A DNA stretch of 63,942 nt, filler included, from an uncultured Ignavibacteriales bacterium (GTDB lineage: Bacteria > Zixibacteria > MSB-5A5 > GN15 > JAAZOE01), in NCBI GenBank assembly GCA_964611355.1. It is 7 parts of 6 records of this genome, joined end to end, with 100 filler letters (N's around TTAATTAATTAA, not from the genome) between each part and the next. Parts side by side here need not be neighbours in the genome. Positions count along the whole stretch, not along the records: positions 54,661 to 63,942 come from CAZSYD010000073.1; 6 more parts are not named here. One strand, 5' to 3'. Numbering within the stretch: the first letter of the stretch is position 1; each line of letters begins with the position of its first letter. Shown here in pieces: positions 13,253 through 63,942 of this stretch. Below the pieces are notes generated by a model. That model saw only the letters and a program-made list of their open reading frames with translations. It had not been told where the DNA came from and did not search any database. The translations under genes were made by a program, and so were the position numbers.

Positions 13253-13352
13253 NNNNNNNNNNNNNNNNNNNNNNNNNNNNNNNNNNNNNNNNNNNNTTAA
13301 TTAATTAANNNNNNNNNNNNNNNNNNNNNNNNNNNNNNNNNNNNNNNNNNNN

Positions 13353-14023: not shown

Positions 14024-14443
14024 TTATTCGGATGCTTCTTCGGATTTCTCCTGCGTTTTGTCCGATTTATCGCCGTCGTCGGACTTTTTTATTTTGCCTT
14101 TGAGATTCATGATCTTTTTGACGACGCCGGGAATCGCCTCCACCAGCGAATCGATTTTGCCCGGTTTGGCAGGAAGAAGCGATATGCCGGTTTTGTCCAT
14201 TATGATGAACGCGGCCGGTTCGACGATGCACCCCCCGCCGCCGCCGGCCCCGTATCCGCCAGAGCTTTTTTCCTTTTCGCCTTCGCCGCCGCCGGCGCCG
14301 AAACCGACCGTTATCTTAACGATCGGCACCACGGTTTTATCGCCAACGGTAACCGCTTCTCCTATTACCGACTCGGCCGAGGCTATATTTTTAAGCTGAC
14401 CGACGATTCCGCTAATGACTTCCATGACATTATTGGTCATCAT
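14024..14443 (-). CDS. GerW/YtfJ family protein
   Basis: VIGEAVTVGDKTVVP..GFGAGGGEG...GGGGG..VEPAAF. Confidence 0.88.
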   Translation of the reverse strand: MMTNNVMEVISGIVGQLKNIASAESVIGEAVTVGDKTVVPIVKITVGFGAGGGEGEKEKSSGGYGAGGGGGCIVEPAAFIIMDKTGISLLPAKPGKIDSLVEAIPGVVKKIMNLKGKIKKSDDGDKSDKTQEKSEEASE

Positions 14444-15081
14444 CCACCTCTTCTTAATATGCTTGACTTTACTATTTTTCTTATCGGCAGGTCGCCAAAC
14501 AGCCGGTAGCCAATACGGATAACCTGCCGGTTTTTTATCGAAAGGGTCAGATGACCCGTCCATTCGCTTTTTTCCGCGCCAAAGTCCGGAACCAGGTTGA
14601 CCGTCCGGCGGGCGCCAGGGAAAATACCATAAAACGCCTGACCAAAACCGTAAAGCATGCCGGCCAGGGCCGGGTCGGCAAAGACCGGCCGGGTTTCAAG
14701 TTTCCCTTCGTCATAATGCAGACGCGAAAGAAAGCGGGCGGCAAAAAGCAACGCCGCTTTACAAATCTTTACGCGACTGGAAAGAGGAAGTTTCTTCCAC
14801 CAGGTTTTAGCCGCTGGTTTGGGCCCGGCTTTTTTCTTTTCGGTTTTTCCCGCAGTAATTTTCCCAGAGCGTGATTTGAAAAAGCATTTAAATCGTCCGC
14901 AAACAATTCCCAATCTGCCTTGTCCGGGATCATACAGTAAGCCGCAACCGATAATAGTCAGCGAAACGGTCGAATCGCCTTCACGGTGGGACGCATAAAG
15001 AACCAGCCGCGTGGTGACAATCAGTATCGCGGCAACCGCGACCGCCAAAGCTACAATAATCAGTACAATCGTCATGACCAC
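14440..15081 (-). CDS. DUF2953-like membrane protein (usual YtfJ partner)
   Basis: N-terminal TM, DPALAGMLYG motif, overlaps the ytfJ-like gene. Confidence 0.7.
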   Translation of the reverse strand: MVMTIVLIIVALAVAVAAILIVTTRLVLYASHREGDSTVSLTIIGCGLLYDPGQGRLGIVCGRFKCFFKSRSGKITAGKTEKKKAGPKPAAKTWWKKLPLSSRVKICKAALLFAARFLSRLHYDEGKLETRPVFADPALAGMLYGFGQAFYGIFPGARRTVNLVPDFGAEKSEWTGHLTLSIKNRQVIRIGYRLFGDLPIRKIVKSSILRRGG

Positions 15082-30223: not shown

Positions 30224-30348
30224 NNNNNNNNNNNNNNNNNNNNNNNNNNNNNNNNNNNNNNNNNNNNTTAATTAATTAANNNNNNNNNNNNNNNNNNNNN
30301 NNNNNNNNNNNNNNNNNNNNNNNTTTAGTCTATATACGGGAAAGTCTC

Positions 30349-34056: not shown

Positions 34057-34171
34057 NNNNNNNNNNNNNNNNNNNNNNNNNNNNNNNNNNNNNNNNNNNN
34101 NNNNNNNNNNNNNNNNNNNNNNNNNNNNNNNNNNNNNNNNNNNNNNNNNNNNNNNNTGCACGGGAGAGTTG

Positions 34172-40030: not shown

Positions 40031-42205
40031 ATGAGACGATTATCTTTTTGTCTGATAATACCGCTTCTTTTGATTATTGCCGGTTGCGGAAGATCGGTTG
40101 AAGACAAGTGGCGAGATATTCAGAGACTTCTTGATGTTGGCCGGTTTTCGGAAGCCGAGCAGGAAATAGATAAAATTGCCGCAACCGATTCCCTCTCTAC
40201 CGGCGCTTTTTACGGCAGGGCGCTTCTCGATGAATACCACGGCTACGTATGGGACGCCTATATTTCCTGTTTTGAAGCGGTAAAACCGGACAAGGAGTTT
40301 GTCCCCGCCCTGAAAAAATATATTCGTCTTGGAATCGAACTTGGTTCTCTCGATGCGGCGCGCCAGGCAACCGGTATGCTAATCTCACGATGCGAGCAGG
40401 ATCCCGACGGATACTTGTATCTGGCCGAGATCGACATGCTGGAGAATCAGCTTGACAGCGCTCGCGCGGCCGTTGACAAAGCAGCTTCCTTCAGCGATGA
40501 CGATCCAACGATCCGGCTGTACAAGGCGGAACTTGATTTACATTCATATGATTCCACGGCCATCCGCGCGACGCTTGACCGCCTTTCCGAGACAGAATAC
40601 ACCAAACCTGATCACTTTTCTCACCTGGCGCGACTTTTTGCCTATCTGAATATGGGCGACTCCGCCGCTTTTTATGTAAGAAAGGCTCTTGAACTGGATA
40701 AGGAAAACATCCGGCTTAAGCTTCAACTGGCTCGATACCTGTATGACGACATGTTCCTGAAGGAAGCATGGGATATTACTGAAAAGCTGATCGCCGAGGC
40801 CGGGCAGTTCGGCCCGGCCTATATTCTGGCCGCCAATATAAAGGGGGTCATAAATAAACCGTATGACGGCCTGGAGTATATTTCGAATTTCATTAATTTC
40901 AAGAAGTTTTCCCCTATCGGAATAGAAGCGCAGGCTGACTACTTCTTTCTTTTTCAGAATAAATATATGGCCATAACAGAGTATGACAGAGCTTACAGCT
41001 CGGCGGTCAATTTAGGATATCCCGCCGAGTATCTTCGTCCCCTCTGTTACAAAGTGCAAAATTGCTGCCTGGAAAAGAGTGATATCGATGTGGCCATGGA
41101 ATTGTTAAAGGAAGACTATCGACTCGATCCTGAAGGGCTTGAGCCCGATTTTATCAAGGCGGAACTGATGCTGAGATTTCCGGAGGTACGAGATTCCGCC
41201 CGAATCCTGGTGGATGATCGGTTGACGGAAAACTCAGGTAATCGCGCGTGGCTGGAACTGGCCGCCAGATATTACTCACGAACCCGCCGGATCGAAAAGG
41301 CAGTCGAAATCTATTACCTGCTCCTTGATTTGCCGTATCCCAAACAAGAATACTTCGCCGGCCTGCTGGAGCTGTACAAGCGAGAAAAAAATATCGCGGC
41401 GGCCGACAGCCTTGCGGAGATATTACCTTTGCGCTTCGAAGAAAGCCGCGAACTGGCCAAACGCTTTTACGATCTATACGACGCTTTCGGCCAAAATGAG
41501 AAGGCTGTTTTTTACGCCGAAAAGCTGTATCGTAAATCACCCGGGTATCTGCCGTACGTGACGACTCTTGCCGAGCTGTATGCCGCGCAGAACAGGTACG
41601 AAGACGGCCTTGCGCTTATTGACCGATATGTGCGGACTTATCCTGACGACCCCGAAGGTCATTATCGGTTGGGCGGTTACGCGCTGGATAACGGCAGGTA
41701 CCAATCAGTCCTGCAATGCAGCGAACGGTCCCTGTCAATAGACAGCGCCTACGGCTCGGCCTATGAACTGAAAGGACTATATTTCAGGGAAAAGGGAAAT
41801 GTCGATTCAGCCATTTACTATTTCCGTCGGACGGTGATGCTTAAATGGCCTACGCCGCTGCCATATTATTACCTTGGGGAATATCTCCTGCAGCAAAGAG
41901 ACAGTCTGAACCGCGCCGCCGGCCTGGGAATGGCTGCCGTGCGGTATTTTGACCGTGACCCCCGCGGATATCATCTCCTTGGCCGAGTCTATTTGACGCA
42001 GAAAAAGTATAAACTGGCCCGGTCGCAGTTTTTCAAAGGCTTGAAGTTCGCCCCGGAGGATGCGGAACTGAATTTTCTTCTTGGAAAAACGTGCGTAATA
42101 TTGGGCAGAAATGCGGAAGCGAAAAAACATATCAATAAAGCCCTGAAAAATAATCTGCCGTCACCGCAGAGAGAAGAGGCAAGAAAACTCTTAATGCAAT
42201 TGTAA
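40031..42205 (+). CDS. TPR-repeat lipoprotein
   Basis: Lipobox IAGC; many TPR-like helical repeats. Confidence 0.8.
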   Translation: MRRLSFCLIIPLLLIIAGCGRSVEDKWRDIQRLLDVGRFSEAEQEIDKIAATDSLSTGAFYGRALLDEYHGYVWDAYISCFEAVKPDKEFVPALKKYIRLGIELGSLDAARQATGMLISRCEQDPDGYLYLAEIDMLENQLDSARAAVDKAASFSDDDPTIRLYKAELDLHSYDSTAIRATLDRLSETEYTKPDHFSHLARLFAYLNMGDSAAFYVRKALELDKENIRLKLQLARYLYDDMFLKEAWDITEKLIAEAGQFGPAYILAANIKGVINKPYDGLEYISNFINFKKFSPIGIEAQADYFFLFQNKYMAITEYDRAYSSAVNLGYPAEYLRPLCYKVQNCCLEKSDIDVAMELLKEDYRLDPEGLEPDFIKAELMLRFPEVRDSARILVDDRLTENSGNRAWLELAARYYSRTRRIEKAVEIYYLLLDLPYPKQEYFAGLLELYKREKNIAAADSLAEILPLRFEESRELAKRFYDLYDAFGQNEKAVFYAEKLYRKSPGYLPYVTTLAELYAAQNRYEDGLALIDRYVRTYPDDPEGHYRLGGYALDNGRYQSVLQCSERSLSIDSAYGSAYELKGLYFREKGNVDSAIYYFRRTVMLKWPTPLPYYYLGEYLLQQRDSLNRAAGLGMAAVRYFDRDPRGYHLLGRVYLTQKKYKLARSQFFKGLKFAPEDAELNFLLGKTCVILGRNAEAKKHINKALKNNLPSPQREEARKLLMQL

Positions 42206-42290: not shown

Positions 42291-42640
42291 TGAAAACCCA
42301 ACCCTCCCTATCGACCCCTCTACCAGCCACGGATAATATAATCCACCCCCCTGACAGATCCTGTCAGTGGGAAATATAAAATTTTATAAAAATCGCATTT
42401 TCAAAAGTAAATTCCATCAAATCCATATCAGGAGAGGCCCGTTGTCCGAGGCGCGGGTCAATCGCGCCTATTTTGATCCGCCCTACGCGACCGGTTTTTT
42501 GATTAGATACCCGCTCACGGAAATTTCATGTATCATGCTGNNNNNNNNNNNNNNNNNNNNNNNNNNNNNNNNNNNNNNNNNNNNTTAATTAATTAANNNN
42601 NNNNNNNNNNNNNNNNNNNNNNNNNNNNNNNNNNNNNNNN

Positions 42641-44712: not shown

Positions 44713-46598
44713 AGACTATAATCAAGTGCTTATTTCATAATCCGCAACCGGTTAATCCCTATGAACGCCTCAATCCTGTTTACAGGCGTTATTCCACGAC
44801 CTTTGACAAGAGGTAATCGACCTCGTCCACGTGCCACGGAACCAGTCCCGCCATTTTGGCCCTATAATAGGCCGCGGCCTCGGAATTGTTCATCATATAT
44901 TCAAACACATAAAGATCCTTGTAAGCTTCATAAATCAGCGTATCGATCTCGACAAGTTTCCGAAGCATGCCGTAGCTAACATCGTAATTCCCCATTCTCC
45001 GGTTGATTTCTGCAATGAAATAATATATGTAAGGATATTCAAGCTTGGGTGAATACCTAAGAGTCGAATCCAGTACAGCCAGCGCCTCTTCATATTCGTC
45101 TCTCGAGAACAGGTTAATGGCCCGGTTGTAACCCTGAACGAAATTCACATCCACGTCACGCCTGATTTCTTCCTCAATCGGGTAGTAACGTTTATAAATC
45201 CCGTTCAAATCCCCCCCGTAGTAGAAAGTAAAGTCGATTATCCGATAGTAATTGATAAAACCACTGTAAAGAAAAAGGGCCCTTTCCGCCGGAGCCGATG
45301 GTTTGAACCCGGTGGAGAATAGGATATAATCCGGCTGACGGGAAAGAACGTATCGGCTGTTGAAATGCGATTCACGCCAGGTAGTCTCCATACCCTTGAC
45401 CGGCGGTTCCGGATGACGGGCAATAGTCGAATCGGTCAATCCCAAAAGATCAATTACCGTATGATCCATCAGGCGATACCCGACCACGCCGATCGTGCTG
45501 ACCGCAATGGAAAAGTTTGATTGATCGACGGCCAGAAGGTTATCCATTAACCTGTTCATCTTCCACGCCAACGCGTTTTCTTTGTTATGGAATGTGGTTA
45601 CGTAATGGTATGGAAAATACAACTGCCAGCAGAGTAAAACCACCAGACAGGGTGCAATTACCAACCCACGTTTCGAAACGGCATAAAAGCCAAATAATAC
45701 GGAAAGAACTGCAAAAGGTAAAAGCGGTACAAAAAACCGGTGCACCTTCAACACGTCGCCACCAATCAGAATAATATATAAAGTATAAACCAGCAGAAAA
45801 ATCATACTCAGCTTCTGCCCCGACGATGACTTCCGAAAAGTCAGAAGCGCCGGTACAACAAACAAACCCGCCCCCAAATAATGCCAAAAAAACTGTCCTG
45901 TGTATTCAAGACCGTTGACCGCCTGCTGAAGATCAAAACTCGTCTTGGCGTAAAACGGATTCGGCAAAAGAGATTTGTAATAGAACAGCTTGAAAACGCC
46001 GAAAGGCAATAAAAAGATAACAAATAAAACTCCTGTTATCATTGCATACCGGGTCAGCGAACGATGCCGTATTATCTCATAGATGAAAAGAAACAAAAAC
46101 ACCAGCCCGCCTTCGGGACGAAAAAGCAGCGACAACACCACAGAAGGAATTACCAATAGCGAACGCCGCAGATAAAAGAAAATAGAAGCCAATACCATAA
46201 AGCCGAAAGCTGCCGTCTCCAATCCCGCCACCGCCCAGTAGGCAAATGAATAAATCGAACCCACCAAAAGACAACACGTCCCTGCCAGTATCGACCGAGT
46301 TGACTTTGACACGCCGGCAAAGACTTCAATGGCCAGAAAATAAAGCATAATGATTGTAGCCAGCCCGAACAGGACGCCGAGTATTTTTGAAAAAAGAACG
46401 AAATCGATTCCGGCCCGACCGCCGACGGTCATGAAAATCGTCCAGAGGAAATTAGTATATCCTTCCACTCTTTCGCCGATGTCATACACCAGCCCGTGAC
46501 CATTGAGATAATTGGCAGCGTATCGGAAAGTGATATAAGCATCATCCTGCGTGAAATTGAAGTGAAAGATCAGATAGAAATAAACGACCAAGGCCAAT
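43361..46598. repeat. Direct repeat of about 1281 bp: 43361-44641 and 45318-46598 (offset 1957)
   Basis: Identical translations in all listed frames and identical DNA wherever compared by eye; sharp boundaries. Confidence 0.92.
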
Positions 46599-46669
46599 GC
46601 CAGCAGGAGAAGACCGGTATATTTCAGACCGGATACGGCCTGGCGGCGCTTTTTTATTTTAAGGGACAT
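44789..46669 (-). CDS. GT-C/AftB-like membrane glycosyltransferase with C-terminal TPR-like region (copy B)
   Basis: Same core as copy A with a divergent N-tip and C-terminal ~170 aa. Confidence 0.75.
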   Translation of the reverse strand: MSLKIKKRRQAVSGLKYTGLLLLALALVVYFYLIFHFNFTQDDAYITFRYAANYLNGHGLVYDIGERVEGYTNFLWTIFMTVGGRAGIDFVLFSKILGVLFGLATIIMLYFLAIEVFAGVSKSTRSILAGTCCLLVGSIYSFAYWAVAGLETAAFGFMVLASIFFYLRRSLLVIPSVVLSLLFRPEGGLVFLFLFIYEIIRHRSLTRYAMITGVLFVIFLLPFGVFKLFYYKSLLPNPFYAKTSFDLQQAVNGLEYTGQFFWHYLGAGLFVVPALLTFRKSSSGQKLSMIFLLVYTLYIILIGGDVLKVHRFFVPLLPFAVLSVLFGFYAVSKRGLVIAPCLVVLLCWQLYFPYHYVTTFHNKENALAWKMNRLMDNLLAVDQSNFSIAVSTIGVVGYRLMDHTVIDLLGLTDSTIARHPEPPVKGMETTWRESHFNSRYVLSRQPDYILFSTGFKPSAPAERALFLYSGFINYYRIIDFTFYYGGDLNGIYKRYYPIEEEIRRDVDVNFVQGYNRAINLFSRDEYEEALAVLDSTLRYSPKLEYPYIYYFIAEINRRMGNYDVSYGMLRKLVEIDTLIYEAYKDLYVFEYMMNNSEAAAYYRAKMAGLVPWHVDEVDYLLSKVVE

Positions 46670-48152
46670 AAACCGGTCTGGCTTTGACCATCGCTTTCCG
46701 GTAAAGTTCAACATATTTCCGGGCCGAACTTGCCCAGGAAAAATCCTGCCGCATCCCTTCTTTCATCACCGCCCGCCATAAGCGCTTTTTGCCATACAGA
46801 TTTACCGCTCGTTCTATCGCACGTAATAAATCTTCAGGATCATAATCATTGAAGACAAAACCGGTTCCGGAGTCGGCGGCGGGGTCAACGTCAGCGACAG
46901 TATCAGCCAGGCCGCCGGTGGCGCGGACAATCGGGACAGTGCCGTATTTCAGGCTGTACATCTGGTTCAATCCGCACGGCTCATATCTGGACGGCATCAG
47001 AAAGGCATCGGCCCCGGCCTCAATCCAGTGGGCCATATTGTTGTCATAGATCAAAAGCGGCCTTAGCTTATCCGGATATTTGGCCCGAAGACTGGTGAAT
47101 AAATCGTGATATTTTTTATCACCGGTGCCGAGGACTATCATCTGCAAATCAAGGCTCAGAATATCGTCGGCTGCCGACGCTATGATATCAAGCCCTTTTT
47201 GATCAACCAACCGGGTAATCATACCGATCAGCGGTGCTTGCTCCCGGTACGGTAAACCAAGCCTGCCGACAAGTTCGACCTTATTCTTTCTCTTGCCCGA
47301 CAGGTTAGACAGGCTGTACTTGTAAGGAATGAGTTTATCCTTCGAAGGAGACCAGATATTGTAATCAACTCCGTTGACAATTCCATAAAGGTCGTTATTG
47401 CGCGAGCGCAGGACACCTTCCAAACCGCAGCCGAATTCATCCGATGATTGAATCTCCACCGCGTATCGTTCCGAGACAGTATTGATGACATCGGAATAGC
47501 CGATTGCGGATTTCATAAAATTCACCTTACCCCAGAACTCAAACGGCCCCGTTGGGTAAAAAAGAGCCTTCGGCAGCTCAAGTTTGTCAAACGATTCAGC
47601 CGGAAATATCCCCTGGTATCCCATGTTGTGAATGGTAAAAACCGTATGGCTGGCGGCAAAGAAAGGATCATCCTTTTTACCCGCCGATAAGAAAGCAGGC
47701 AAAAGGCCTGTCTGCCAGTCATTGGCATGGACAATATCCGGCATCCATTCAAGAGTCTTCATTGCTTCCAGGGCAACGCGGCAAAAAAATATAAAACGGT
47801 CGTCATTGTCGGTATAGTCAAGACCGGTGTCAGGATCGACATAAAGTCCGGGACGATCGAAATAGGGAGCATAATCCACAAATAAAATTTCATAAGAGAT
47901 TTCCGGATCTCTCAGGCGGACGATATTCGCCGTTTCAGTTTTTCCGCCGGTAGTAGTTTCGATGGAAGGGCCGTCGGTTACGTCTTCCAGCAGTAATGGA
48001 GAAATACCAGCGTACTTCGGCATAATCACTTTGACCTCGTGCCCCATTTCAGCCAGCACACGGGGAAGAATGCCGGACACGTCGGCCAGTCCGCCGGTTT
48101 TGGCGTAAGGAACAACCTCAGGTGACGCGAAAAGCACCTTCAGTTTTTCCAT
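46659..48152 (-). CDS. glgA: Glycogen synthase
   Basis: KTGGLADV, HANDWQT, PSRYEPCGLNQ. Confidence 0.96.
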   Translation of the reverse strand: MEKLKVLFASPEVVPYAKTGGLADVSGILPRVLAEMGHEVKVIMPKYAGISPLLLEDVTDGPSIETTTGGKTETANIVRLRDPEISYEILFVDYAPYFDRPGLYVDPDTGLDYTDNDDRFIFFCRVALEAMKTLEWMPDIVHANDWQTGLLPAFLSAGKKDDPFFAASHTVFTIHNMGYQGIFPAESFDKLELPKALFYPTGPFEFWGKVNFMKSAIGYSDVINTVSERYAVEIQSSDEFGCGLEGVLRSRNNDLYGIVNGVDYNIWSPSKDKLIPYKYSLSNLSGKRKNKVELVGRLGLPYREQAPLIGMITRLVDQKGLDIIASAADDILSLDLQMIVLGTGDKKYHDLFTSLRAKYPDKLRPLLIYDNNMAHWIEAGADAFLMPSRYEPCGLNQMYSLKYGTVPIVRATGGLADTVADVDPAADSGTGFVFNDYDPEDLLRAIERAVNLYGKKRLWRAVMKEGMRQDFSWASSARKYVELYRKAMVKARPVYVP

Positions 48153-51673: not shown

Positions 51674-51773
51674 NNNNNNNNNNNNNNNNNNNNNNNNNNN
51701 NNNNNNNNNNNNNNNNNTTAATTAATTAANNNNNNNNNNNNNNNNNNNNNNNNNNNNNNNNNNNNNNNNNNNN

Positions 51774-54660: not shown

Positions 54661-55189
54661 ATCCAAAGATTTCTTTCATAGCCATCCAATCGAAGGTTTT
54701 ACCGGCGGCTCCGCCAATACCGCCCCAGAAGTCGGACTTTCCTTTCTGTTTTCCAAGAGTCAGGGCTATCAGCCGGTCAAGGTTTCTCATTCGCATCTGC
54801 TCGCCCATTATCGAGCCGTACTGGTACGCTTTGGCATACCCCAGTTCCGATTCGCCGATAGCCGTAGCACCCGCTCGCATAACTGGAGCAACCACATCAG
54901 CCTGATAATATCCCGGCGCCTCTCCGGCTCCGTGAATTCCCCTGCTCGCCAGATCCGCCTCAAAGGCTTCGGTTGAGACTGGTAGCCGCGATAGCAATTC
55001 TGACATCTGGCCCCTGAGTGATCGATCAAAGGCACTCTTGTCCGGCAGAAAACCGCTATAATTGCTTTTTTCATACTCTTTCCGCACAAGCTCCATAAGT
55101 TCGTCCATATCGCCTGAGCCGCCGCCGAAAAGGCCACCAAGCAATGACGTAGCCACGTTTGCCGCGCCATATATCAGTAAAGGGTCCAT
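54661..55189 (-). CDS. Putative internal virion / DNA-ejection protein (truncated)
   Basis: MDPL..Gly/Ala-rich N-terminus, helical body, Gly-rich C-terminal segment; lies after the nozzle gene. Confidence 0.55.
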
Positions 55190-55190
55190 G

Positions 55191-55661
55191 CTATTCTCCT
55201 TCCACCATAACCCGAACCGTGCCGGTATCTGTGCTGTCGCTGGATATGATGATAAACTGCGTCCCGGAAATCGGGATTATCCGGTAACTGCTTTCGTTGT
55301 CTGCATCCAGCGACCACACCCTGCCGAAATAAGTCGTATGGTCAATAAAGCTCAAATCCTGCCGACCGTCAGAGATCGAAGAATTGACTGTGATTGTATC
55401 GTAGCCGCTTCCGCCCAACTTGATTTCCCTTACCGCCCGGTGATACCCCTTTGCATGTTCCGATTGATTTACCGGCCTGCCTGTTCCGATGTCATATACT
55501 GTTTTGACCCGGCCCTCTACCGCTGGGGGGGCTGGTAGCGGCTCAACGAGCCGGGCCGCAGGGATGGAATCATTCTCCCGCTTATCTGCGGAATTCACAA
55601 AGCCAGGCAAGCCGGTAATTACCAAGAACCAAAAGAGAAAGAGATATTTAATCTTTTTCAT
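55191..55661 (-). CDS. Phage hypothetical protein with signal peptide
   Basis: MKKIKYLFLFWFLVITGLPGFVNSA; beta-rich C-terminal part. Confidence 0.65.
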   Translation of the reverse strand: MKKIKYLFLFWFLVITGLPGFVNSADKRENDSIPAARLVEPLPAPPAVEGRVKTVYDIGTGRPVNQSEHAKGYHRAVREIKLGGSGYDTITVNSSISDGRQDLSFIDHTTYFGRVWSLDADNESSYRIIPISGTQFIIISSDSTDTGTVRVMVEGE

Positions 55662-58378
55662 CGAATCCGCCCCTTGTCTGACGGCAAATAGCCGATAGTG
55701 TATCCGGTTATCGTGTAATCCCCGGCCCCCTGATCGGCTATCCTGACCGAAAGGTCTTTTACTATTTCCTTGACCACGAACCGCTGGATTTCTTTTTCGG
55801 TGAAATCAACCGCCCTACTGACGGTCTTGACGGAATCCTGACCTTTGAGATCGAAAAAGGTCAACGAAAGCATATCGCACGATCCCGTTCCCTGCAAATC
55901 GACATAAAATATCTGCTCCCGATTGTTGCCGTTGTCGAAAAAAGACTTGGATTGATAAACCGCAAAAATAGAATCGGTTCCGTCCAGCGAAGTATCAGCA
56001 TAATTCCAGTCGTAAAGAGTATCGTTATCGGCGATGAATACCCATCGGGTTGTCCGGTAATCAGCCGCGTCGCTTTCGTAGTCATAAGGCACGCCGTCGA
56101 TGATCCCGAAGGTGTAGCACTTCCAATGCGGAAAAGGCACGAATGAATAAATGTAGATTTTTGAGTTAATAGAATCGCCCGGGGGGTTTTCACCGGGCCC
56201 GGGTTGAGGTCTCGGGATCGCACCGGAAAACCAGTATTCGTCTCCGACCACTCCACCCCAAGCCGACATAAGATTATCGCCTATTGAGTCCAGAGAGTTT
56301 TCGATTGTCCACGAAATCGGATTGTCCCAGTTATCGCCCGGGAAGGAATAAATCCCGGTATTATGCGCCCAAAAAGCCCGGTTATATCCGCCGGCAAGAC
56401 TCCGGGGGGCGGTCAGTCCTATATCGGCGCTCAATTCTTTGATCTGGTACTGGTAAAAGCTCTGGCCAGCAAACCCGACGAATGAATTTTGCCTGAACGC
56501 CAATAGCCAGTCTCCCATAGAGAGAAGGCCGTTAAACCAGTCGCCCTTTTGGGATGGGATGTTTATGTGCTTGTCCCGATGCCAATTCGTTGGTTCCCCA
56601 AAATCTGAAAAATATAGACAGCTCTTGTTCCATGGATTGCCGATGGCGAATAGCCTTGATTGATGAAGGGCGATGTCAGAAGGGCAAAAGGATATTACGG
56701 AATCGTCATTGCAGTAACCCTCAATGGCACCCAAAACTGTCGAATCTTCGTTAAAGACGTGACGGTAATAATATGAGTATCCACTATACGGCTCGGCTTG
56801 GTGATATATGCAAGTATCGCCCGCCGAATCTGTTTCCAGTTTAATATCCAACATGGAGCCGTACTGCCTGTAAGTAAATTCACCGTGTTTTTCGCCAAGC
56901 CATTTGAAAGGTATCGTGTCGGTATAAGTCGTTGTTTCCGGGTCAAGTTCAGCCACCATGTAAAATCGACCTATTTTGTTTTCGACATAACCGAATCGGA
57001 GGTTTCGCTCACCCAATATCTGATATACGTTGCCGTCATCTTCGCCTCTATAGTTTGGGTCGAGATACATTCTTAATAAATATTTTTTGGTTATAGAGGA
57101 TGAACCAAATCCAACCGGTACTAAAATATTGGATATATTTGCGATGATGATGGTATCTATATCTTCGTCAAAAGGTTCCCACGCCGGATAGTTGCCCCTC
57201 CTTGTGGTGGGCGTTGAGATATAACTATACCTTCCCGCTGAGTCTTTATAAACGACGGAATAGGATACAAAATAACCGCCGGTGTCTCTATAATCGGAAA
57301 CGGAACAAATGTCTGTCCCGAAGCCGTTTTCGGTTAAATCTATACCATAAGGATAATGAGCGTATGGATAATAGGCGGCGATAAGATAACTCGTATCCCC
57401 AGCACTATCAATTAGAACCCAAGGTCGTTCTTCCCGGTCAAAATCAACCATTAAACCACCGGGGGCGCATGAATCGTTGTCTATACTACTCCCCGTTGAG
57501 TTTGGGAAAAACACTGGTGTCAGGGTATCGGTTATATTCGCCGCCGAATCCATTGAAACGCTGTCCACAAAGCTCGTAGCGTAGATGCTTTTAATGAGAT
57601 GCCAAGCACCATCCTCGTTGTCTTGGCGATATATTTCGATGCTATCCCCGGCTGACGGCACTATCATTCCCTCAATCCAGACTTTGCCGTTATTTACATA
57701 GACGGGGAACGAAGGGACGGACGCGTCGGGACAGTTGGCGTTTGTGAATATATAACGATATTGCACCGTCCCGTTAATAGAACCAATGCCGTCGAGCGGA
57801 GAGACCCTCGGTTGGCCGGGCCCATACGGTCTGGCTGGCATTGATTTATTCCCATCAAAGACCACCATATCGCTACTCGTGCTGGCTATGATTAGATTTT
57901 CATTCACAATCGCCGATCTTTCGTTGTACGGAAGGCTTAGATGGCGGCGGCCAAGATAATAATTCCATCCGATAAAGGTCGTGCAGGTGCCGCCGCTCTC
58001 ATCATCACAAAGAAATAAAGAAGCCAAATTGAGTGCAGGTTCCGCGAGTCCGTAATCACCGCCCCGCGTTGTATCGTTTCTGACAACCAGAAAGCCCTTG
58101 CCTATGCTGCGGCCATAATAGCCGAAAACGGCTTGGCCTATTTGTTCGGAGAGGCTGTCAATGTAGTATTGCCGAAAACCGTTTCTGCGTTTTAACGCCC
58201 CATATCCGTCAATATCAAAATTATCAAGGACAATCGCCTGGTTGTCTTTCATCAGGGAATTGCTGATCGAGTTCACCAGCCCGCCGGAGAAATCATTTAC
58301 AGGATATTCTTCAATCTCCTGCGATGACAGAGGCGCCGTCAGTAATAACGTCAGGATTATGAAAAGACAGCGAATCAT
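55658..58378 (-). CDS. Phage tail nozzle / tail tubular protein B-like (P22 gp10/T7 gp12 class) with N-terminal signal peptide
   Basis: After MIRCLFIILTLLLTAPLSS comes DFSGGL...DNQAIVLDNFDID..GALKRRNG; later HQSRLF...LYFSDFGEPTNW beta-propeller patterns. Confidence 0.7.
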   Translation of the reverse strand: MIRCLFIILTLLLTAPLSSQEIEEYPVNDFSGGLVNSISNSLMKDNQAIVLDNFDIDGYGALKRRNGFRQYYIDSLSEQIGQAVFGYYGRSIGKGFLVVRNDTTRGGDYGLAEPALNLASLFLCDDESGGTCTTFIGWNYYLGRRHLSLPYNERSAIVNENLIIASTSSDMVVFDGNKSMPARPYGPGQPRVSPLDGIGSINGTVQYRYIFTNANCPDASVPSFPVYVNNGKVWIEGMIVPSAGDSIEIYRQDNEDGAWHLIKSIYATSFVDSVSMDSAANITDTLTPVFFPNSTGSSIDNDSCAPGGLMVDFDREERPWVLIDSAGDTSYLIAAYYPYAHYPYGIDLTENGFGTDICSVSDYRDTGGYFVSYSVVYKDSAGRYSYISTPTTRRGNYPAWEPFDEDIDTIIIANISNILVPVGFGSSSITKKYLLRMYLDPNYRGEDDGNVYQILGERNLRFGYVENKIGRFYMVAELDPETTTYTDTIPFKWLGEKHGEFTYRQYGSMLDIKLETDSAGDTCIYHQAEPYSGYSYYYRHVFNEDSTVLGAIEGYCNDDSVISFCPSDIALHQSRLFAIGNPWNKSCLYFSDFGEPTNWHRDKHINIPSQKGDWFNGLLSMGDWLLAFRQNSFVGFAGQSFYQYQIKELSADIGLTAPRSLAGGYNRAFWAHNTGIYSFPGDNWDNPISWTIENSLDSIGDNLMSAWGGVVGDEYWFSGAIPRPQPGPGENPPGDSINSKIYIYSFVPFPHWKCYTFGIIDGVPYDYESDAADYRTTRWVFIADNDTLYDWNYADTSLDGTDSIFAVYQSKSFFDNGNNREQIFYVDLQGTGSCDMLSLTFFDLKGQDSVKTVSRAVDFTEKEIQRFVVKEIVKDLSVRIADQGAGDYTITGYTIGYLPSDKGRIR

Positions 58379-59019
58379 TTACCGCTCCCAGCCGAAACCT
58401 TTATTCCCATGTCCTGCCGGACAATAGCATTAAGCAACTGAAAGACGGCGTGGTTCTTTTTCGCCTGCTCATAGTAACTGACGGCTTCTTCGATGATAAA
58501 AACGTGCAGATCGTCGGGGACATAGCAACTATCCGTCCGAGCATCCATATTCGGAGCCCGGGCAAGGTAATGAATCCTTACGGTCTGATCGGTGTAGAAA
58601 TAGCTGCCCTTCAAATAAAGCTCGGCTTGATCGGCATTTTCCCACCAGATAAAATACTGGTATTTATCCACATCCGTAATAAAGCCCGGATTGTTGACGG
58701 CCGCATGCCATTGCTCTCCATCATAGGCAACAACCATACTACATCTCTTGAAATCTGTCGGCAGGGAGTATTTCATCGAATCCGGGGAATAGGCAATATC
58801 GCAACGCTGTGGCAAAAATCCGCCGAACGGCACTACCTTATCCATTGCCATATCGAGAAACCGCATCGCCGCCGTATCGGAAATAATCGAGCTGCCGCTG
58901 TCCGGTTCCCCTATTCTCTGCCGGAAACCCCAGAGAAGATCGTCCAACGTAGCCGCTTCGACAAAATGAGCCGCGAAAGTCAGGATTATCAACCAGAGAA
59001 GGATACGCTTCAGCATCAA
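58375..59019 (-). CDS. Phage head-tail adaptor-like protein 2 with N-terminal signal peptide
   Basis: MMLKRILLWLIILTFAAHFVEA, then TLDDL..FRQRIGEP...YSLPTDF...IHYLARAP...VPDDLH. Confidence 0.7.
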   Translation of the reverse strand: MMLKRILLWLIILTFAAHFVEAATLDDLLWGFRQRIGEPDSGSSIISDTAAMRFLDMAMDKVVPFGGFLPQRCDIAYSPDSMKYSLPTDFKRCSMVVAYDGEQWHAAVNNPGFITDVDKYQYFIWWENADQAELYLKGSYFYTDQTVRIHYLARAPNMDARTDSCYVPDDLHVFIIEEAVSYYEQAKKNHAVFQLLNAIVRQDMGIKVSAGSGK

Positions 59020-59690
59020 TGCCCCCTTCCGATTTTGTGGCTCAATCGGTTCCGCTTTGAGGTTCTTTGATCCGGGACCATCCGGATATCGGTAATAACC
59101 CGGCCAATATCCTCCTGATAATGACCGAGTTTTCTCAGGTAGATATGAGCATCAACTTCGGCTGTCGTAAAGAATTCCGGCAACGAAGCGCGAACCCCGC
59201 GCATCAATAGAGACCATTCTTCAATCGCGTCTATGTCGTTTTCCGTCGGCTCGCGGTAATACTCGAACTTGTAAGTGCATGAGGTTGAGGCCTCATCTGC
59301 CAGAACCAGATAGTTTCCCCTGCCGTCGGAACCGTCATGATTGAACTCAATGTAGCACATATTGGCGGCTGCGGGCGCATTGTTTTCAATCGTATGCAGG
59401 ACTTCGGTTTTACCGACAATGTAGATCAGGCGGACGAAGTTGCCGCTGCTATCATATTCGGCGCACGATGTCCGGGCAGTAAAGAAATCGCTGTTGAGCT
59501 TATATTGAAGATCCGTCGTATTGATGGAGATTTCTTGAGTCCGGGAAAGCGTCCGAAACCGGCCGCCGCTCTGCTGGAGCATCTCCAGTGCAACCTCGCC
59601 GACCTTTCGCTCAATCTTTGCCTGGATTTCAGGGCCGGTCTTGCCCGAATCCGAAATCAGCCTATCGACCATAAATGCTCTTGATGCCAT
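59016..59690 (-). CDS. Phage head-tail adaptor-like protein 1 (no signal peptide)
   Basis: Helical N-terminus, QYKLNSDF and YKFEYYREP adaptor-type motifs. Confidence 0.6.
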   Translation of the reverse strand: MASRAFMVDRLISDSGKTGPEIQAKIERKVGEVALEMLQQSGGRFRTLSRTQEISINTTDLQYKLNSDFFTARTSCAEYDSSGNFVRLIYIVGKTEVLHTIENNAPAAANMCYIEFNHDGSDGRGNYLVLADEASTSCTYKFEYYREPTENDIDAIEEWSLLMRGVRASLPEFFTTAEVDAHIYLRKLGHYQEDIGRVITDIRMVPDQRTSKRNRLSHKIGRGH

Positions 59691-59693
59691 TTT

Positions 59694-60224
59694 TTAACCC
59701 CCGTAGGCAGCCATCCTGGGTGTTTGGCGCAGCCTTTTCTTCGCAACCGGATTGAGCTTTTGCAACGGTTCAACGGCCTCTTTTTTCTCTTCCAGCCGCG
59801 TCGCCATTTTGCCGATGCGCTCTTTAACGTCCTTCATGGTGAGAGAGGCCATATCCGCCGATTTGCCTACGCTCACGCAGGTTTTGACTTCCTGTACCTT
59901 GACCATATCGAGTTCACGCCAGAAACCGGTCTCATCTCTTTCGTCGATATTGAAGCCGTGAGAACTTGAGCCGAAGGCGGCATGTTGCAAAAGCAGTTCG
60001 AGGATATTGGAGTTGGTAACTCTCAAGCTACCGGCTTTGAATTTAATCCTGAGCCCTGTTCCGGACGTTGATACATAAGCCTTGCGTACCTGGTCATATA
60101 CATCCTCAAGCGGCTTCAGAATAATTTTGAGGTGTGGAGCATCCTCGGTTGATACGAAAGTGGCGGCGACTTTAAGATCGCTGCCTTTGAATTTCTTCGG
60201 CCCTTTTGTTCTTTCAAACGCCAT
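59694..60224 (-). CDS. Phage hypothetical protein
   Basis: AGGAGA SD; lies within the structural operon. Confidence 0.6.
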   Translation of the reverse strand: MAFERTKGPKKFKGSDLKVAATFVSTEDAPHLKIILKPLEDVYDQVRKAYVSTSGTGLRIKFKAGSLRVTNSNILELLLQHAAFGSSSHGFNIDERDETGFWRELDMVKVQEVKTCVSVGKSADMASLTMKDVKERIGKMATRLEEKKEAVEPLQKLNPVAKKRLRQTPRMAAYGG

Positions 60225-60248
60225 CGCATTCTCTCCTTTTTTAATCAA

Positions 60249-60270
60249 GGGGGCGGGGTTCGCCCGCCCC
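60249..60270 (-). terminator. GC hairpin after the capsid genes (probable partial terminator)
   Basis: GGGGCGGG-CGAAC-CCCGCCCC on the minus strand. Confidence 0.5.
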
Positions 60271-60281
60271 GTTATTAAGGT

Positions 60282-61091
60282 TTAGTAGTTACACCACTGT
60301 TTTCTCCGGTTGACCGAAGGCCCGAAAACCAACGACCGCGCGGCTATGCTGATGCTCGGTGAGGTGATTGCTCCGGAAGCATCGGTGGCCTGGAAGACCA
60401 GCCTCTTGCCCTTTGAAGCCATAATCGGCTCACCGTCCATATCGAAAGTCGTCGCTGTGGCTGTAACCAACGGCATTGTCCTGACCAGAACCGAAGTCCC
60501 GGCAAAGTCATCGCACTCATAGACCTTTATTCCGGCCGTTGCGCCGCCAAAGCTAACATTCGCCTCAACTTGCAGAATCTCATGGAGAACCTGCATATCG
60601 CCGTTGTGAATGTTAAGCGACGGGCCGTTCAGCGTAACCCCGACAGGGAATATCTCCGCCGTTTCCAGCGAAGTGTCATCGAGGATCAATAATCCCGCGT
60701 CTCCCGTGCAATCGTTGTCAGTTCCCTGACCAGTTGCATAGACGGCATTACCCGCCGAGATTTCAATGTCGTTATCCGGACGGTAATCGACCGGCCAAGC
60801 CTCCCAATCGTCGGCAAGATTAATCATGTGATAGAGGTCATAAACCGTCGAAAGGTCGGAAATGTTGATTACGCCGGAAGTTCCGGGATTATCACCGGTT
60901 GTTACGGCCGCCGTTCCGGCCGTAGCACCTTGTTCAAAAGTCAAGTCGCCCGTTGTGGCCCCGACAGAAACAATGCCTGCCGCATAAGGCCCGATACATC
61001 TGATCCCAATTACGACAGACGTATCGACGGCCACCCGCTCGTAGGTACTCCTGATCCAATCCGCAGGAGATACATTTATAATTCCCATCAT
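60282..61091 (-). CDS. Phage structural protein, possibly capsid decoration
   Basis: Directly after the MCP gene, AGGAGG SD, A/T/G/D-rich. Confidence 0.5.
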   Translation of the reverse strand: MMGIINVSPADWIRSTYERVAVDTSVVIGIRCIGPYAAGIVSVGATTGDLTFEQGATAGTAAVTTGDNPGTSGVINISDLSTVYDLYHMINLADDWEAWPVDYRPDNDIEISAGNAVYATGQGTDNDCTGDAGLLILDDTSLETAEIFPVGVTLNGPSLNIHNGDMQVLHEILQVEANVSFGGATAGIKVYECDDFAGTSVLVRTMPLVTATATTFDMDGEPIMASKGKRLVFQATDASGAITSPSISIAARSLVFGPSVNRRKQWCNY

Positions 61092-61098
61092 TACCTCC

Positions 61099-62286
61099 TT
61101 AGAATTCTAATCCTTCGATTATTGACCAGGTTTCCTCCTCGAAATACTCATACCCGAATTGGCCGTAGATTTCACCCTCGTCGGAGTGAACCTCGTCACG
61201 GCTGATCGGATTGTAAGCGATATCGAGGTCTTTCTTTTCCTTGAGCGGTCGGTACATGAATTTCCCCTTCGGAACGAGGAAAATCATTCCCATCAGATAC
61301 GGGTCCTGACTGAGCTTATCGCCCTCAATCAGGTCGTAAATGTGGCCGTTCAGGTTGATGCGCCGAATATCCAGACCCAGTTCTTTGGCGTCTTGGTCCA
61401 TGACAACCTTGTCGTCCGTCCATTGGTTTACCAGGCTGATAAAGTAGGACGAACAAACAATAGCGCCCTGTCCCTTGTAGAAAATCCGCCATTCCAGAAG
61501 AAGGTCAAAGAAGTCCATTCGGCTCATTGTCCCGGAGACATTCGTTACGTTTGTCGTAACAAAATCGTAGATGCCGCTAAAGGTATGGTAGTTCTGGGTG
61601 TAACTGGAGGAATCGGTTTTCTGACCCATGAAAAACAGGCCAGACTCCATTTGGTTTTTAATCCGCATCCACGATTTGTCGAGGTCTTTCTCAAACGGCG
61701 TCATTCCGGAGTATGTCCGCTCGGCAACCTCGGTATCGGTGGCCGAAACGGGATAGCTCACGATGCCGGTCGTAAATGACTTATAGACATCTACGCCGGA
61801 CTGTGGCTTGCCGGTCGTGAAGCCTTCGACCATCTGTGGGGTCAGAAGCAATAGGTGGTCGCCGGTTTTGAGATAATCGGTGGTAGCTCCGCGACCATGG
61901 CAACGGTCAACCGCTGCCGTTGTGTCCGCACTGGCAGGGTCGGCTGTCAGCCGAATAAGTTCCTTCGTCCTGGTGCAAAACAGAACCTGACCCTCAGCAC
62001 AGCGTTCGTAAACGTTGTCGATGGTCAGACCGGTTGCGCCCTGAGAGACCTCATCGTCACCGGTGTACTCAACCCAGTCGGCGAAGGGGGTGTCTTCGGT
62101 GTGGCCGAAGGTGTGGTTGAAGGTTGGTTCGGACGGCAATCCGTTTGCCATGAGCCACGACAGAAGCTGGTTCTGATTCGGGTTGTTCATCCATACCCGA
62201 TCCCCGATGCACAGGGGTTTATCCTGCGCGATAGGATCGTCGGTATCCCGAATCGTCCGTAAAAATGTTGCAGCATTTGGAAGCAA
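61099..62286 (-). CDS. Major capsid protein (SU10/DUF5309-like HK97 fold)
   Basis: 395 aa after the scaffold gene; N-terminal NP...LL, H...ED, ME.GLFF.G...TFSGIYDFV.TN, YRPL, C-terminal GE..G.E pattern. Confidence 0.75.
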   Translation of the reverse strand: MLPNAATFLRTIRDTDDPIAQDKPLCIGDRVWMNNPNQNQLLSWLMANGLPSEPTFNHTFGHTEDTPFADWVEYTGDDEVSQGATGLTIDNVYERCAEGQVLFCTRTKELIRLTADPASADTTAAVDRCHGRGATTDYLKTGDHLLLLTPQMVEGFTTGKPQSGVDVYKSFTTGIVSYPVSATDTEVAERTYSGMTPFEKDLDKSWMRIKNQMESGLFFMGQKTDSSSYTQNYHTFSGIYDFVTTNVTNVSGTMSRMDFFDLLLEWRIFYKGQGAIVCSSYFISLVNQWTDDKVVMDQDAKELGLDIRRINLNGHIYDLIEGDKLSQDPYLMGMIFLVPKGKFMYRPLKEKKDLDIAYNPISRDEVHSDEGEIYGQFGYEYFEEETWSIIEGLEF

Positions 62287-62289
62287 GTG

Positions 62290-63171
62290 TTATCCTTTTT
62301 TGGGTCCTTTCAGGCGCCTCATTGTGTGATCAAAGTCTTCCTTGTTGTGCATATCAAGGCCGCCTGTTTTTTTCGCATTCGCATTGTCTTCGGCGCCGCC
62401 GCTTCCGCCCTTCAAATCGCCTGTGTTCTTTCTGTTAAGTTCCTCGATGTACTCTTCCCGACCAACTTTCTTGGCCGCGTCAAGAGCCGCCGGCAGATTC
62501 GCGCCTTTGGCTGCCAGATGCAGAACCTCGGCCATTTCCATTCGCCCGCTGACCGTCGCCAGTTGAAGCGAGTTACGATCCTGAGACAGTTGGCCCCAGT
62601 CATCGTATTTCCGAGCATACTCCGCTTCCTGCATGGCGTCGATCTTGGAGGCAAACATCGAGGAAAACCGAGCCGTCAATTCGTCGCCGAATTGTTTGAA
62701 TTTGGCATCAAGGTTGGATTCAGAAAGAGCTCCGTCGTCGTCCAGAAGAGCGACTTTCTTCCCTTCGGGAAAGTCGATCTGAACGCCAAATTCTTTGGCA
62801 AGTTTGGCAATGCCTTGTTTGGCGTCTCCGTCGAAAATGCTTTTCAGGGACTTGAAAGATTCAATATCAGACCCCAATCGCCCGACTGAGGTTTTCAACT
62901 TCTCGTTCTCTTCCTTGAGAGAGAGAATCTGAGCATCCCTGTCATCTCCTTTTTTATCAGACGAAGCATCAGGTTTCTTTTTGTTGTCGGCGTCTCCGGC
63001 TTTGCCGGCATCCTGATTACCCGCGTCGGCAGCACCGGCAGCGCCCTTATTGGCGTCGCCCGCGTCCCCAGCGTTGGCCTTGTTTGCCGCATCCTGACCG
63101 GCAGTCCCAGCGTCTCCGCCGGCACCCCCGTCAGAACCTTCATCTAAATAGCGCCGTAAGTGAAGAATCAT
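62290..63171 (-). CDS. Capsid scaffolding protein
   Basis: Low-complexity D/A/G/K N-terminus, coiled coil, lies just before the MCP gene. Confidence 0.7.
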   Translation of the reverse strand: MILHLRRYLDEGSDGGAGGDAGTAGQDAANKANAGDAGDANKGAAGAADAGNQDAGKAGDADNKKKPDASSDKKGDDRDAQILSLKEENEKLKTSVGRLGSDIESFKSLKSIFDGDAKQGIAKLAKEFGVQIDFPEGKKVALLDDDGALSESNLDAKFKQFGDELTARFSSMFASKIDAMQEAEYARKYDDWGQLSQDRNSLQLATVSGRMEMAEVLHLAAKGANLPAALDAAKKVGREEYIEELNRKNTGDLKGGSGGAEDNANAKKTGGLDMHNKEDFDHTMRRLKGPKKG

Positions 63172-63173
63172 AA

Positions 63174-63428
63174 CTACTCCTGTAAAGTGTTTTGTATGTA
63201 AGTTTTAAGCCTGTCGATAAGCTGCGAAAAATGCCGCCTCTTCAGGCTCAGTTCTTTTAATTTGCCTATTTCGCTTTCTTTCAATTCGACGTTTGCCCCC
63301 AATGAGCGGATCATCTCTTCTTTGATTCCGTCAACCTGCTCGTCGAGAAAACCCATCAACAGCTTGAACTCAGACGAAGTTGTAATTGCCTGCATCCGAG
63401 CGGCTTCTGGTGTCTGTTTTCCCCTCAT
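63174..63428 (-). CDS. Small phage protein between portal and scaffold
   Basis: 84-aa helical ORF in a position typical of podoviruses. Confidence 0.6.
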   Translation of the reverse strand: MRGKQTPEAARMQAITTSSEFKLLMGFLDEQVDGIKEEMIRSLGANVELKESEIGKLKELSLKRRHFSQLIDRLKTYIQNTLQE

Positions 63429-63942
63429 GGCGTTACCCCTACGCTGGTAGATCTCTGTCCCTGAGAAATCGCTGCCTGCCCGGTGGATTCCGTCAAGGCA
63501 TTGCTTCTTTGACCCGCCCCGGCCGCCTGAACCCCCATCTGCATCCCGGCCGATTTGTGCTCTTCCGCGTGTTGAGTCATTCGCCTCTTCATGGATTCCG
63601 GCCAGAGTTGATAATCCGGCGTCATCATGTAGGCCGAATGTACCCTGAAGTGATTTTCGTGATCGTTGGCGGGCGACACCCGAACGGTATGCCCCATAGC
63701 CATAATCTGATTTTCAATTTCAGGCGGTATATTCTCGGACTTTTCTGCGGGGTCAACCACGTATTCGTTAAACTCGCGCGGGTCGAGCTTCTTCCACATG
63801 CCCTTAAATAACTTTGTTAGATCAAAATACTGCGGAAACTGTAAAGACCTATCGAGGCCGGTCATATACTGTTGAATACGAATAGCATCATCCTGTAACC
63901 GGGTTGATCCCCGCGCCATGAATTTGCAACTGCCCGTCAGCC
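63425..63942 (-). CDS. Portal protein C-terminal part (starts beyond the window)
   Basis: Frame open to the window end; NDHENHFRVH...HAEEH and a Q/A/G-rich tail typical of P22-like portals. Confidence 0.65.
   Translation of the reverse strand, partial: LTGSCKFMARGSTRLQDDAIRIQQYMTGLDRSLQFPQYFDLTKLFKGMWKKLDPREFNEYVVDPAEKSENIPPEIENQIMAMGHTVRVSPANDHENHFRVHSAYMMTPDYQLWPESMKRRMTQHAEEHKSAGMQMGVQAAGAGQRSNALTESTGQAAISQGQRSTSVGVTP

Follow-up and report, generated by a model that had tools for sequence, protein, structure and literature searches.

Assembly of tailed phages is taught as a cytoplasmic process, and where mycobacteriophage virions are glycosylated this is done by phage-encoded glycosyltransferases in the cytoplasm. 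A general O-glycosylation system is known from Bacteroidota; according to the available text of PMC12871550 it modifies only noncytoplasmic proteins, nearly always requires Asp before the modified residue (Glu is not tolerated in B. fragilis), slightly favours Ser over Thr, and has Leu, Ile, Val, Thr, Ala or Ser in about 90% of the +1 positions, with Met, Phe, Cys and Gly being rare. The same text places the excess of the motif in noncytoplasmic proteins "mainly in Bacteroidota", where alone the system is documented, and describes its oligosaccharyltransferase as still undiscovered. It also reports that sequons introduced by engineering become glycosylated in hosts such as Flavobacterium johnsoniae or Bacteroides thetaiotaomicron. 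In phages of Porphyromonas gingivalis, proteins of unknown function have been reported that are suited to the secretory (Sec) pathway and signal peptidase I (SPI) of the host, with Gln after the cleavage site; they are thought to modify the host surface, and the available text of that report does not mention glycosylation (PMC10367356). Here we describe tail proteins from the window, that is, the whole 63,942-nucleotide stretch of DNA that was analysed, from a Zixibacteria bin (GCA_964611355.1). The whole finding is carried by a separate 9,282-bp phage contig, present in full (54661-63942), on which all phage genes run on the minus strand, and it concerns a nozzle, an SU10-like adaptor (adaptor 2) and a small 156-aa protein, which combine signal-like N-termini with the sequon D-(S/T)-(A/I/L/V/M/T).

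These proteins resemble the Bacteroidota substrates in being predicted noncytoplasmic, in carrying a D-(S/T)-hydrophobic motif with the same preferences at each position, and in exceeding the chance frequency, which for exported proteins is the genomic signature of the system, as far as the available text describes those substrates. They differ from them in being phage virion proteins with a density about five times chance, in coming from a Zixibacteria bin, and in that their glycans are predicted. As in P. gingivalis, phage proteins appear suited to the Sec/SPI pathway of the host, but in the window it is the tail itself that is concerned. With the glycosylated mycobacteriophages they share a tailed virion whose surface bears glycans, in the present case by prediction; unlike in that cytoplasmic route, the motif here belongs to a periplasmic system of the host, and no gene of the glycosyltransferase families GT2 (PF00535) or GT1 (PF00534), the two families searched, was found in any of four related phage records. 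A phage-encoded glycosyltransferase of these families was accordingly rejected.

We consider it fairly probable, judging from the sequences, that tail proteins in this SU10-like podophage lineage are exported by Sec and O-glycosylated in the periplasm by the host. The outward-facing virion parts, namely adaptor 2, the nozzle, the small distal protein and, in longer relatives, fibres or spikes, would be made as Sec substrates and carried across the inner membrane by a cleavable N-terminal signal peptide, and their sequons would be glycosylated in the periplasm by the general system of the host. The head, portal, adaptor 1 and internal proteins would remain cytoplasmic, and the glycosylated tail would meet the DNA-filled head only once the inner membrane is breached at lysis. 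We found no paper on exported or host-glycosylated tails of tailed phages.

Signal-like N-termini and sequons of the tail proteins

The 906-aa protein is, on the evidence of its AlphaFold model (predicted local distance difference test, pLDDT, 79.5; predicted template modelling score 0.80), a podophage nozzle, with a fold built around a beta-propeller core; proteins of this class form the tube directly under the adaptor ring. Its best Foldseek matches in the PDB were the SU10 tail proteins (7z4b_DW and 7z47_G, E 2e-20 to 5e-18), followed by cyanophage A4, the crAss001 muzzle gp44, T7 gp12 and P22 gp10 (to 1e-12). PHROG matches were weak, and the sequence profile gave no match below E 0.1 against PDB sequences. 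The gene follows directly after an SU10-type adaptor within the capsid-to-tail module, as in SU10, and overlaps the upstream gene by 4 nt, an arrangement that recurs in four relatives (five loci in all). The major capsid protein (MCP) is likewise of the SU10 type (Pfam SU10_MCP, E 2.6e-13, above the cut-off). Adaptor 2 scored 26.1 bits against Pfam SU10_adaptor (PF24175), for which the gathering cut-off is 27; precomputed Pfam annotation assigns PF24175 to a protein identical to it and to three of seven relatives, and a profile search returned 8 close relatives only. The 156-aa protein had no match in Pfam, PHROG or NCBIfam and gave a poor model (pLDDT 52); its gene position makes it a candidate distal tail part.

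Sequons were counted as D-[ST]-[AILVMT], with the expectation for each protein taken from 5000 composition-preserving shuffles. The counts of the first-pass annotation were all reproduced (nozzle 18, 156-aa protein 3, adaptor 2 2, MCP 1, the rest 0). For the nozzle, where the sequons are scattered over residues 74 to 848, 3.55 +/- 1.78 were expected and none of the 5000 shuffles reached 18, so that the enrichment outlives the correction for composition and a composition artefact was ruled out as its cause. The eight signal-less frames of the contig together held 1 sequon against approximately 6.6 expected (sum of shuffle means), with 1 against 1.9 in the MCP, 0 against 0.94 in the scaffold-like protein, and 0 against 0.43 and 1.66 in the 184-aa and 269-aa head-module proteins.

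The N-termini of the nozzle, adaptor 2 and the 156-aa protein each have at least one Lys or Arg, followed by a stretch of 12-17 hydrophobic residues without charge and by small residues. By the positive-inside rule, positive charge ahead of a hydrophobic run predicts an N-in/C-out orientation. In the AlphaFold model, nozzle residues 2-18 make up a single helix that stands before the fold. The hydrophobic N-terminus is kept in 48 of 56 full-length nozzle relatives, directly before a conserved N-terminal block, and the other 8 begin inside or after that block and look N-truncated; the N-termini are conserved in character, not in sequence. In 29 of 51 nozzle relatives, all of common ancestry, the first polar residue behind this run is a Gln; in the window this holds for the nozzle only and not for adaptor 2 or the 156-aa protein, as read directly from the sequences and not from a formal cleavage-site prediction.

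The specificity of the excess was determined by varying each position of the tripeptide in a pool of five nozzles, that of the window and four first relatives with 29-45% identity, whose counts are not independent owing to shared ancestry. The four relatives held 22, 19, 20 and 11 sites against 3.5-4.0 expected. At position -1 only Asp was enriched (90 against 18.7, 4.8-fold), with Asn next at 1.56-fold and Glu at 0.37-fold, and at position 0 Ser reached 6.2-fold and Thr 3.3-fold. At position +1 the order was Cys (12.5-fold), Ala and Met (both 7.0-fold), Leu (5.6-fold), Val (4.5-fold), Ile (3.8-fold), Thr (2.7-fold) and Ser (2.2-fold), and Glu, His, Lys, Pro, Gln, Arg, Trp and Tyr did not occur at all. 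The first-pass annotation had named the tripeptide as the Bacteroidota O-glycosylation sequon, and this agrees with the sequon as given in the available text of PMC12871550.

Related phages and nozzle homologues

A search with a 14-sequence nozzle alignment gave five related loci, one from a species-genome collection (L001) and four from IMG/VR (L002-L005), that share the whole gene order with the window: terminase, portal, a small protein, scaffold, MCP, two head-module proteins and adaptor 1, then the tail genes for adaptor 2, the nozzle and a small protein, and then three internal-type proteins, of which the largest has 1546-2109 aa. After the glycine-rich protein, at whose gene the window contig ends, the relatives carry internal-type proteins of approximately 380 aa and 1500-2100 aa. 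Homologues of the 156-aa protein with signal peptides stand at the same position in L002-L005. With two over-extended starts corrected and the pieces of the frameshifted L001 nozzle left out, the 16 signal-bearing proteins of the six loci, which were always adaptor 2, the nozzle and the small protein, held 138 sequons against 28.29 expected (4.88-fold), whereas the 73 signal-less open reading frames (ORFs) held 50 against 64.02 (0.78-fold). The adaptor 2 relatives had 6, 5, 7, 5 and 6 sequons against 1.09, 0.76, 1.25, 1.15 and 1.41. Per locus the signal-less ratio was 0.16 in the window, then 0.93, 1.25, 0.95, 0.45 and 0.82; the earlier statement that head proteins almost never carry the motif thus described an extreme of this window, signal-less ORFs elsewhere being near chance.

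The same contrast was found in longer phage records, for which automatic ORF calls were used and one record (G002) was left out owing to a mis-called nozzle start. In G005, a record of 52,110 bp with terminal repeats that is rated complete, signal-bearing proteins had 74 sequons against 23.7 and signal-less ones 24 against 25.2; the corresponding values were 93 against 26.9 and 14 against 25.9 in G004, and 92 against 20.9 and 18 against 19.4 in G003. The difference between signal-positive and signal-negative proteins, which the first-pass annotation had drawn from the window, therefore extends over the six loci and these three records. Beyond the giant internal protein, the longer records also have a further block of signal-bearing proteins rich in sequons, 857-1672 aa in length (37 sequons against 14.7, 33 against 9.8, 28 against 6.7, 20 against 4.1 and 16 against 4.9). 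Two proteins of this block matched beta-helices, one with a right-handed beta-helix match above the Pfam cut-off and one with a weak match, and judging from sequence the block is likely to encode fibres or spikes. In G003-G005 a signal is present on all externally exposed parts of the tail and on no head or internal protein.

Among deposited phages, the nozzle matched none of 50,697 records, and the large terminase reached at most 33% identity over under half its length. A phmmer search with the nozzle gave 371 matches with E-values no higher than 1e-3, 62 of them no higher than 1e-30, and the best 150 of the 371 were analysed. Among these 150, the 56 close full-length nozzles pooled to 926 sites against 215.1 (4.31-fold, range 1.95-6.43), and 75 distant homologues without a hydrophobic N-terminus had 194 against 188.2 (1.03-fold). 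Also from the 150, 25 signal-bearing and 37 signal-less members were aligned, and in the 425 columns that they share the former reached 3.79-fold and the latter 0.75-fold; at the two best-conserved sequon columns the sequon was present in 23 of the 25 and in 1 of the 37, the signal-less members keeping the hydrophobic +1 residue with D-D, E-D or G-E before it.

The solved comparators behave like these signal-less homologues. Unlike the nozzle of the window, to which their identity is about 10%, the SU10 nozzle gp17 and the crAss001 muzzle gp44 have no hydrophobic N-terminus and carry the sequon at chance level (2 against 4.16 and 7 against 4.57). The 17 SU10 structural proteins together had 28 sequons against 26.8, and the ring and spike proteins of crAss001 are also without signal peptides; the crAss001 structure paper mentions neither a signal peptide nor a glycan (PMC10172136). 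The signal-less homologues, the shared columns, SU10 and crAss001 rule out that the fold itself requires the motif. The first-pass annotation had named two results that would count against it, namely loss of the excess on correction for composition and an equal frequency in signal-less nozzle homologues; both were looked for, and the excess stayed while the signal-less homologues were at chance.

The sites themselves turn over. In 48 aligned nozzles there are 799 sites, on average 16.6 per nozzle, spread over 174 columns; the 8 columns with at least 50% occupancy hold 262 of them, 350 lie in columns below 25% and 89 columns are singletons, although misalignment of variable regions inflates these figures somewhat. 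From the alignment, this is the pattern expected where selection acts on density and also on a small number of fixed sites.

Candidate hosts

The first-pass annotation took the motif as a sign that the contig belongs to its host lineage and is no binning stray. This does not follow, as the motif fits any host with the system. The window consists of seven parts joined end to end by six identical N linkers, and these are artificial, so that neighbourhood across them carries no meaning; the tie between the phage contig and the host genome is co-binning only. The description of the system in Bacteroidetes was correct, but the bin is Zixibacteria and not Bacteroidota.

We therefore examined the sequon in the host sequences. 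On the six host contigs of the window, signal-like ORFs held 33 sequons against 14.4, and 32 cytoplasmic ORFs 19 against 18.8 (1.01-fold), the signal heuristic being loose here, with at least one false positive (a FabF-like protein). The clearest individual cases are a lipoprotein esterase (9 against 1.97), a TPR lipoprotein (9 against 1.45) and a Wza-like exporter (6 against 2.15). A Zixibacteria-like set was collected with the sigma-54 protein of the host, from which 69 metagenome loci were obtained and 65 kept (533 kb), 4 with under 50% identity being dropped. In these 65 loci, which share neighbourhoods and are thus not independent and whose taxonomy is taken from the sigma-54 match only, exported proteins had 167 sequons against 85.7 (1.95-fold), membrane proteins 1.27-fold and cytoplasmic proteins 1.15-fold. 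After deduplication the exported class stood at 1.89-fold, and a bootstrap by locus gave 1.69-2.28 for exported and 0.97-1.35 for cytoplasmic proteins. Asp was the sole clearly enriched residue at -1 in the exported proteins, with Glu at 0.47-fold. A Phycisphaerae-labelled metagenome-assembled genome (MAG; 400 kb) run through the same pipeline gave 0.93-fold for exported, 0.97-fold for membrane and 1.14-fold for cytoplasmic proteins. These sequence counts suggest that the sequon bias is present in the host lineage of the window, and a link of the phage to Zixibacteria is plausible. No paper was found on O-glycosylation in Zixibacteria, although Figure 2A of PMC12871550, on motif enrichment across all bacteria, may already cover it.

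That export and glycosylation are rightly read while the host is a member of Bacteroidota or another lineage of the Fibrobacterota-Chlorobiota-Bacteroidota (FCB) group, the phage contig being a stray in the Zixibacteria bin, is a substantial possibility, if short of probable. The contig is physically separate from the host contigs, the available text of PMC12871550 documents the system only in Bacteroidota, and no publication was found that links O-glycosylation to Zixibacteria. Mis-binning does occur in this phage family, as a single scan of 185,579 species genomes returned one locus with a nozzle relative, L001, whose nozzle is broken into small frames, and it lies in the Phycisphaerae-labelled MAG, which has no exported sequon bias. 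Gln after the signal cleavage site is a Bacteroidetes trait, the Q-rule, in the available text of PMC5837995, and a Gln behind the hydrophobic run is more frequent in the phage (29 of 51 nozzles, 9 of 24 signal peptides) than in exported proteins of the Zixibacteria-like set (7 of 44) or of Phycisphaerae (6 of 31). However, of the three phage signal peptides in the window a single one has it, and both the host contigs of the window and the 65 Zixibacteria-like loci show the bias in exported and not in cytoplasmic proteins. The tetranucleotide correlation between phage and host contigs was 0.94, within the 0.89-0.96 of the host contigs among themselves, which is partly circular since binning uses this signal. 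The host is thus left between Zixibacteria and Bacteroidota. The further-reaching combination, in which the whole external tail is built in the periplasm with heads joining at lysis and the sequon system also operates in Zixibacteria as the likely host, is put forward tentatively, as something possible rather than expected.

Two side observations concern the bacterial genomes. The Phycisphaerae-labelled MAG (G001) has a different phage on another contig (C21) than that of L001, with a strong SU10_MCP match. In the window, tandem membrane-protein paralogues of 622 and 641 aa with approximately 7 transmembrane segments seem to share one sequence, to the letter, through most of the membrane part, with differences in roughly the first 40 residues and in a TPR-like C-terminal part. 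They gave weak TPR matches and, at the N-terminus, a weak match to an NCBIfam GT-C arabinofuranosyltransferase (E 9e-9, far below the cut-off), and their sequence makes them candidates for a pair of envelope or protein glycosyltransferases in a sequon-biased lineage.

Proposed export and glycosylation of the tail

Several points weigh against export and host glycosylation of the tail. To our knowledge, the tails of all tailed phages studied are put together in the cytoplasm, and an exported nozzle cannot reach the portal before lysis, so that adaptor 1 alone would have to hold the packaged DNA. Adaptor and nozzle form the core of the tail and could not be attached late in the way of a peripheral piece. 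Signal peptides were called by our own heuristic and not by SignalP. Taken alone, the 156-aa protein is weak (3 sequons against 0.68, P = 0.025) and adaptor 2 is not significant (2 against 0.70, P = 0.15). The modified residues of the nozzle lie in coil in 11 of 18 cases, against a coil background of 51% in the model, and secondary-structure mapping was thus not discriminating; several sites lie at strand or helix starts. The close nozzle family is one clade, and the gain of the signal and of the sequons may therefore be one historical event. Seven distant matches with a hydrophobic N-terminus showed little excess (32 against 21.6, 1.48-fold), which may reflect nozzle export in phages of hosts without this glycosylation system. 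The excess in Zixibacteria-like exported proteins is only about 1.9-fold, and their +1 preferences differ from those of the phage (Val 0.9-fold against 4.5-fold). Lastly, with the transferase undiscovered in the available account of the Bacteroidota system, the host machinery has no marker gene.

Six of the seven distant matches (P0092, P0096, P0100, P0108, P0117 and P0129) are distant nozzle homologues, and P0137 is a 132-aa fragment resembling the N-terminus of a close-family nozzle.

It is unlikely that the hydrophobic N-termini are uncleaved, membrane-active or anchoring helices and that the sequon excess serves another role, such as cytoplasmic modification or a binding motif. The rule of cytoplasmic assembly and the heuristic nature of the signal-peptide calls speak for it, and the 1.48-fold value of the seven distant homologues indicates that the two traits are separable. 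Nevertheless, the n-h-c layout of the N-termini, opening with Lys or Arg and continuing into hydrophobic runs that mostly span 12-17 residues, predicts translocation of the greater part of each protein, and the excess matches the periplasmic sequon at each residue. In the three longer records all signal-bearing structural proteins show it and the signal-less ones do not, and the four phage records hold no GT1 or GT2 gene. That the excess is a structural or compositional habit of the clade, for example Asp-Ser turns at strand starts, without any modification is very improbable: the eight sequon columns conserved in at least half of the 48 nozzles, the sites at strand or helix starts and the monophyly of the nozzle clade would fit it, but the shuffles remove composition as an explanation, the signal-less homologues of the same fold stand at 0.75-fold in the shared columns with other residues at the conserved sites, the same bias occurs in the non-homologous adaptor 2, small protein and fibres and not in head proteins of the same genomes, and 350 of the 799 sites lie in low-occupancy columns.

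If tail subunits are indeed exported and glycosylated by the host, a second compartment would be added to virion assembly, and it may be asked how packaged heads stay closed before the tail arrives, and when and where head and tail join. A dense glycan coat on the tail could give stability or shielding, and would raise the question whether it confers protease resistance, hides the tail from host receptors or antibodies, or binds host glycan-recognition proteins. Sequon density would then be a cheap signal for predicting the hosts of uncultured phages. There would also be a hint that Bacteroidota-type O-glycosylation reaches at least one other FCB phylum, which would narrow the search for the transferase to genes common to both phyla.

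The features of the window are listed in Table 1. The names of adaptor 1, the scaffold and the putative portal end were taken from the order of genes in the relatives.

Table 1. Coordinates of phage genes, host genes and joins in the window.
Feature	Coordinates	Strand	Remarks
Nozzle, 906 aa, core tail tube below the adaptor	55658..58378	-	Identified by AlphaFold and Foldseek
Nozzle codons 1-19, predicted Sec/SPI signal peptide	58322..58378	-	Gln first after hydrophobic run
Adaptor 2, 214 aa, SU10-adaptor-like	58375..59019	-	Signal-peptide-like residues 1-23; Pfam SU10_adaptor near cut-off
Small tail protein, 156 aa, predicted exported	55191..55661	-	Signal peptide, variable linker, conserved beta-rich domain of ~105 aa
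Adaptor 1, 224 aa	59016..59690	-	Signal-less, 0 sequons; no family match; named from gene position only
Two head-module proteins, 184 aa and 269 aa	59694..61091	-	Signal-less; synteny kept in relatives
MCP, 395 aa	61099..62286	-	Signal-less; Pfam SU10_MCP
Scaffold-like protein, 293 aa	62290..63171	-	Signal-less; named from position between portal and MCP
84-aa protein and portal C-terminal end	63174..63940	-	Portal gene cut by contig end; both proteins signal-less, 0 sequons
Glycine-rich protein, N-terminal 176 aa	54662..55189	-	Cut by contig end; signal-less, 0 sequons
Host lipoprotein esterase	23712-25103	-	
Host TPR lipoprotein	40031-42205	+	
Host Wza-like exporter	26989-29343	+	
Tandem membrane-protein paralogues, 622 aa and 641 aa	42844-44712, 44789-46714	-	
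Linker before the phage contig	54561..54660		44 N, 12-base stop spacer, 44 N; artificial; unrelated host contig on other side
Other linkers	2745-2844, 13253-13352, 30224-30323, 42541-42640, 51674-51773		44 N, 12-base all-frame stop spacer, 44 N
Separate 100-N scaffold gap	34057-34156		

Additionally, some minor observations were made on the phage proteins. Cysteine amounted to 1.12 per 100 aa in signal-bearing and 0.64 in signal-less phage proteins of the six loci, and nozzle C132 is nearly invariant in 14 relatives, with a second Cys a few residues upstream. Disulfide bonds stabilise the tail barrel and fibre hubs of crAss001 (PMC10172136), and with the cysteine surplus in the signal-bearing proteins a periplasmic route would be in keeping with oxidative folding. 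Two relatives have a small membrane protein of 87-93 aa (L003 21305-21568, L004 20765-21046) placed between the giant internal protein and the fibre block, which could be holin-like or an assembly factor at the boundary of cytoplasmic and exported proteins. In crAss001 (L108) the membrane-targeted lysis-regulatory protein gp27 (14094-14696) carries 4 sequons against 0.33 expected, and it offers a cultured system in which O-glycosylation of a phage protein could be tested.

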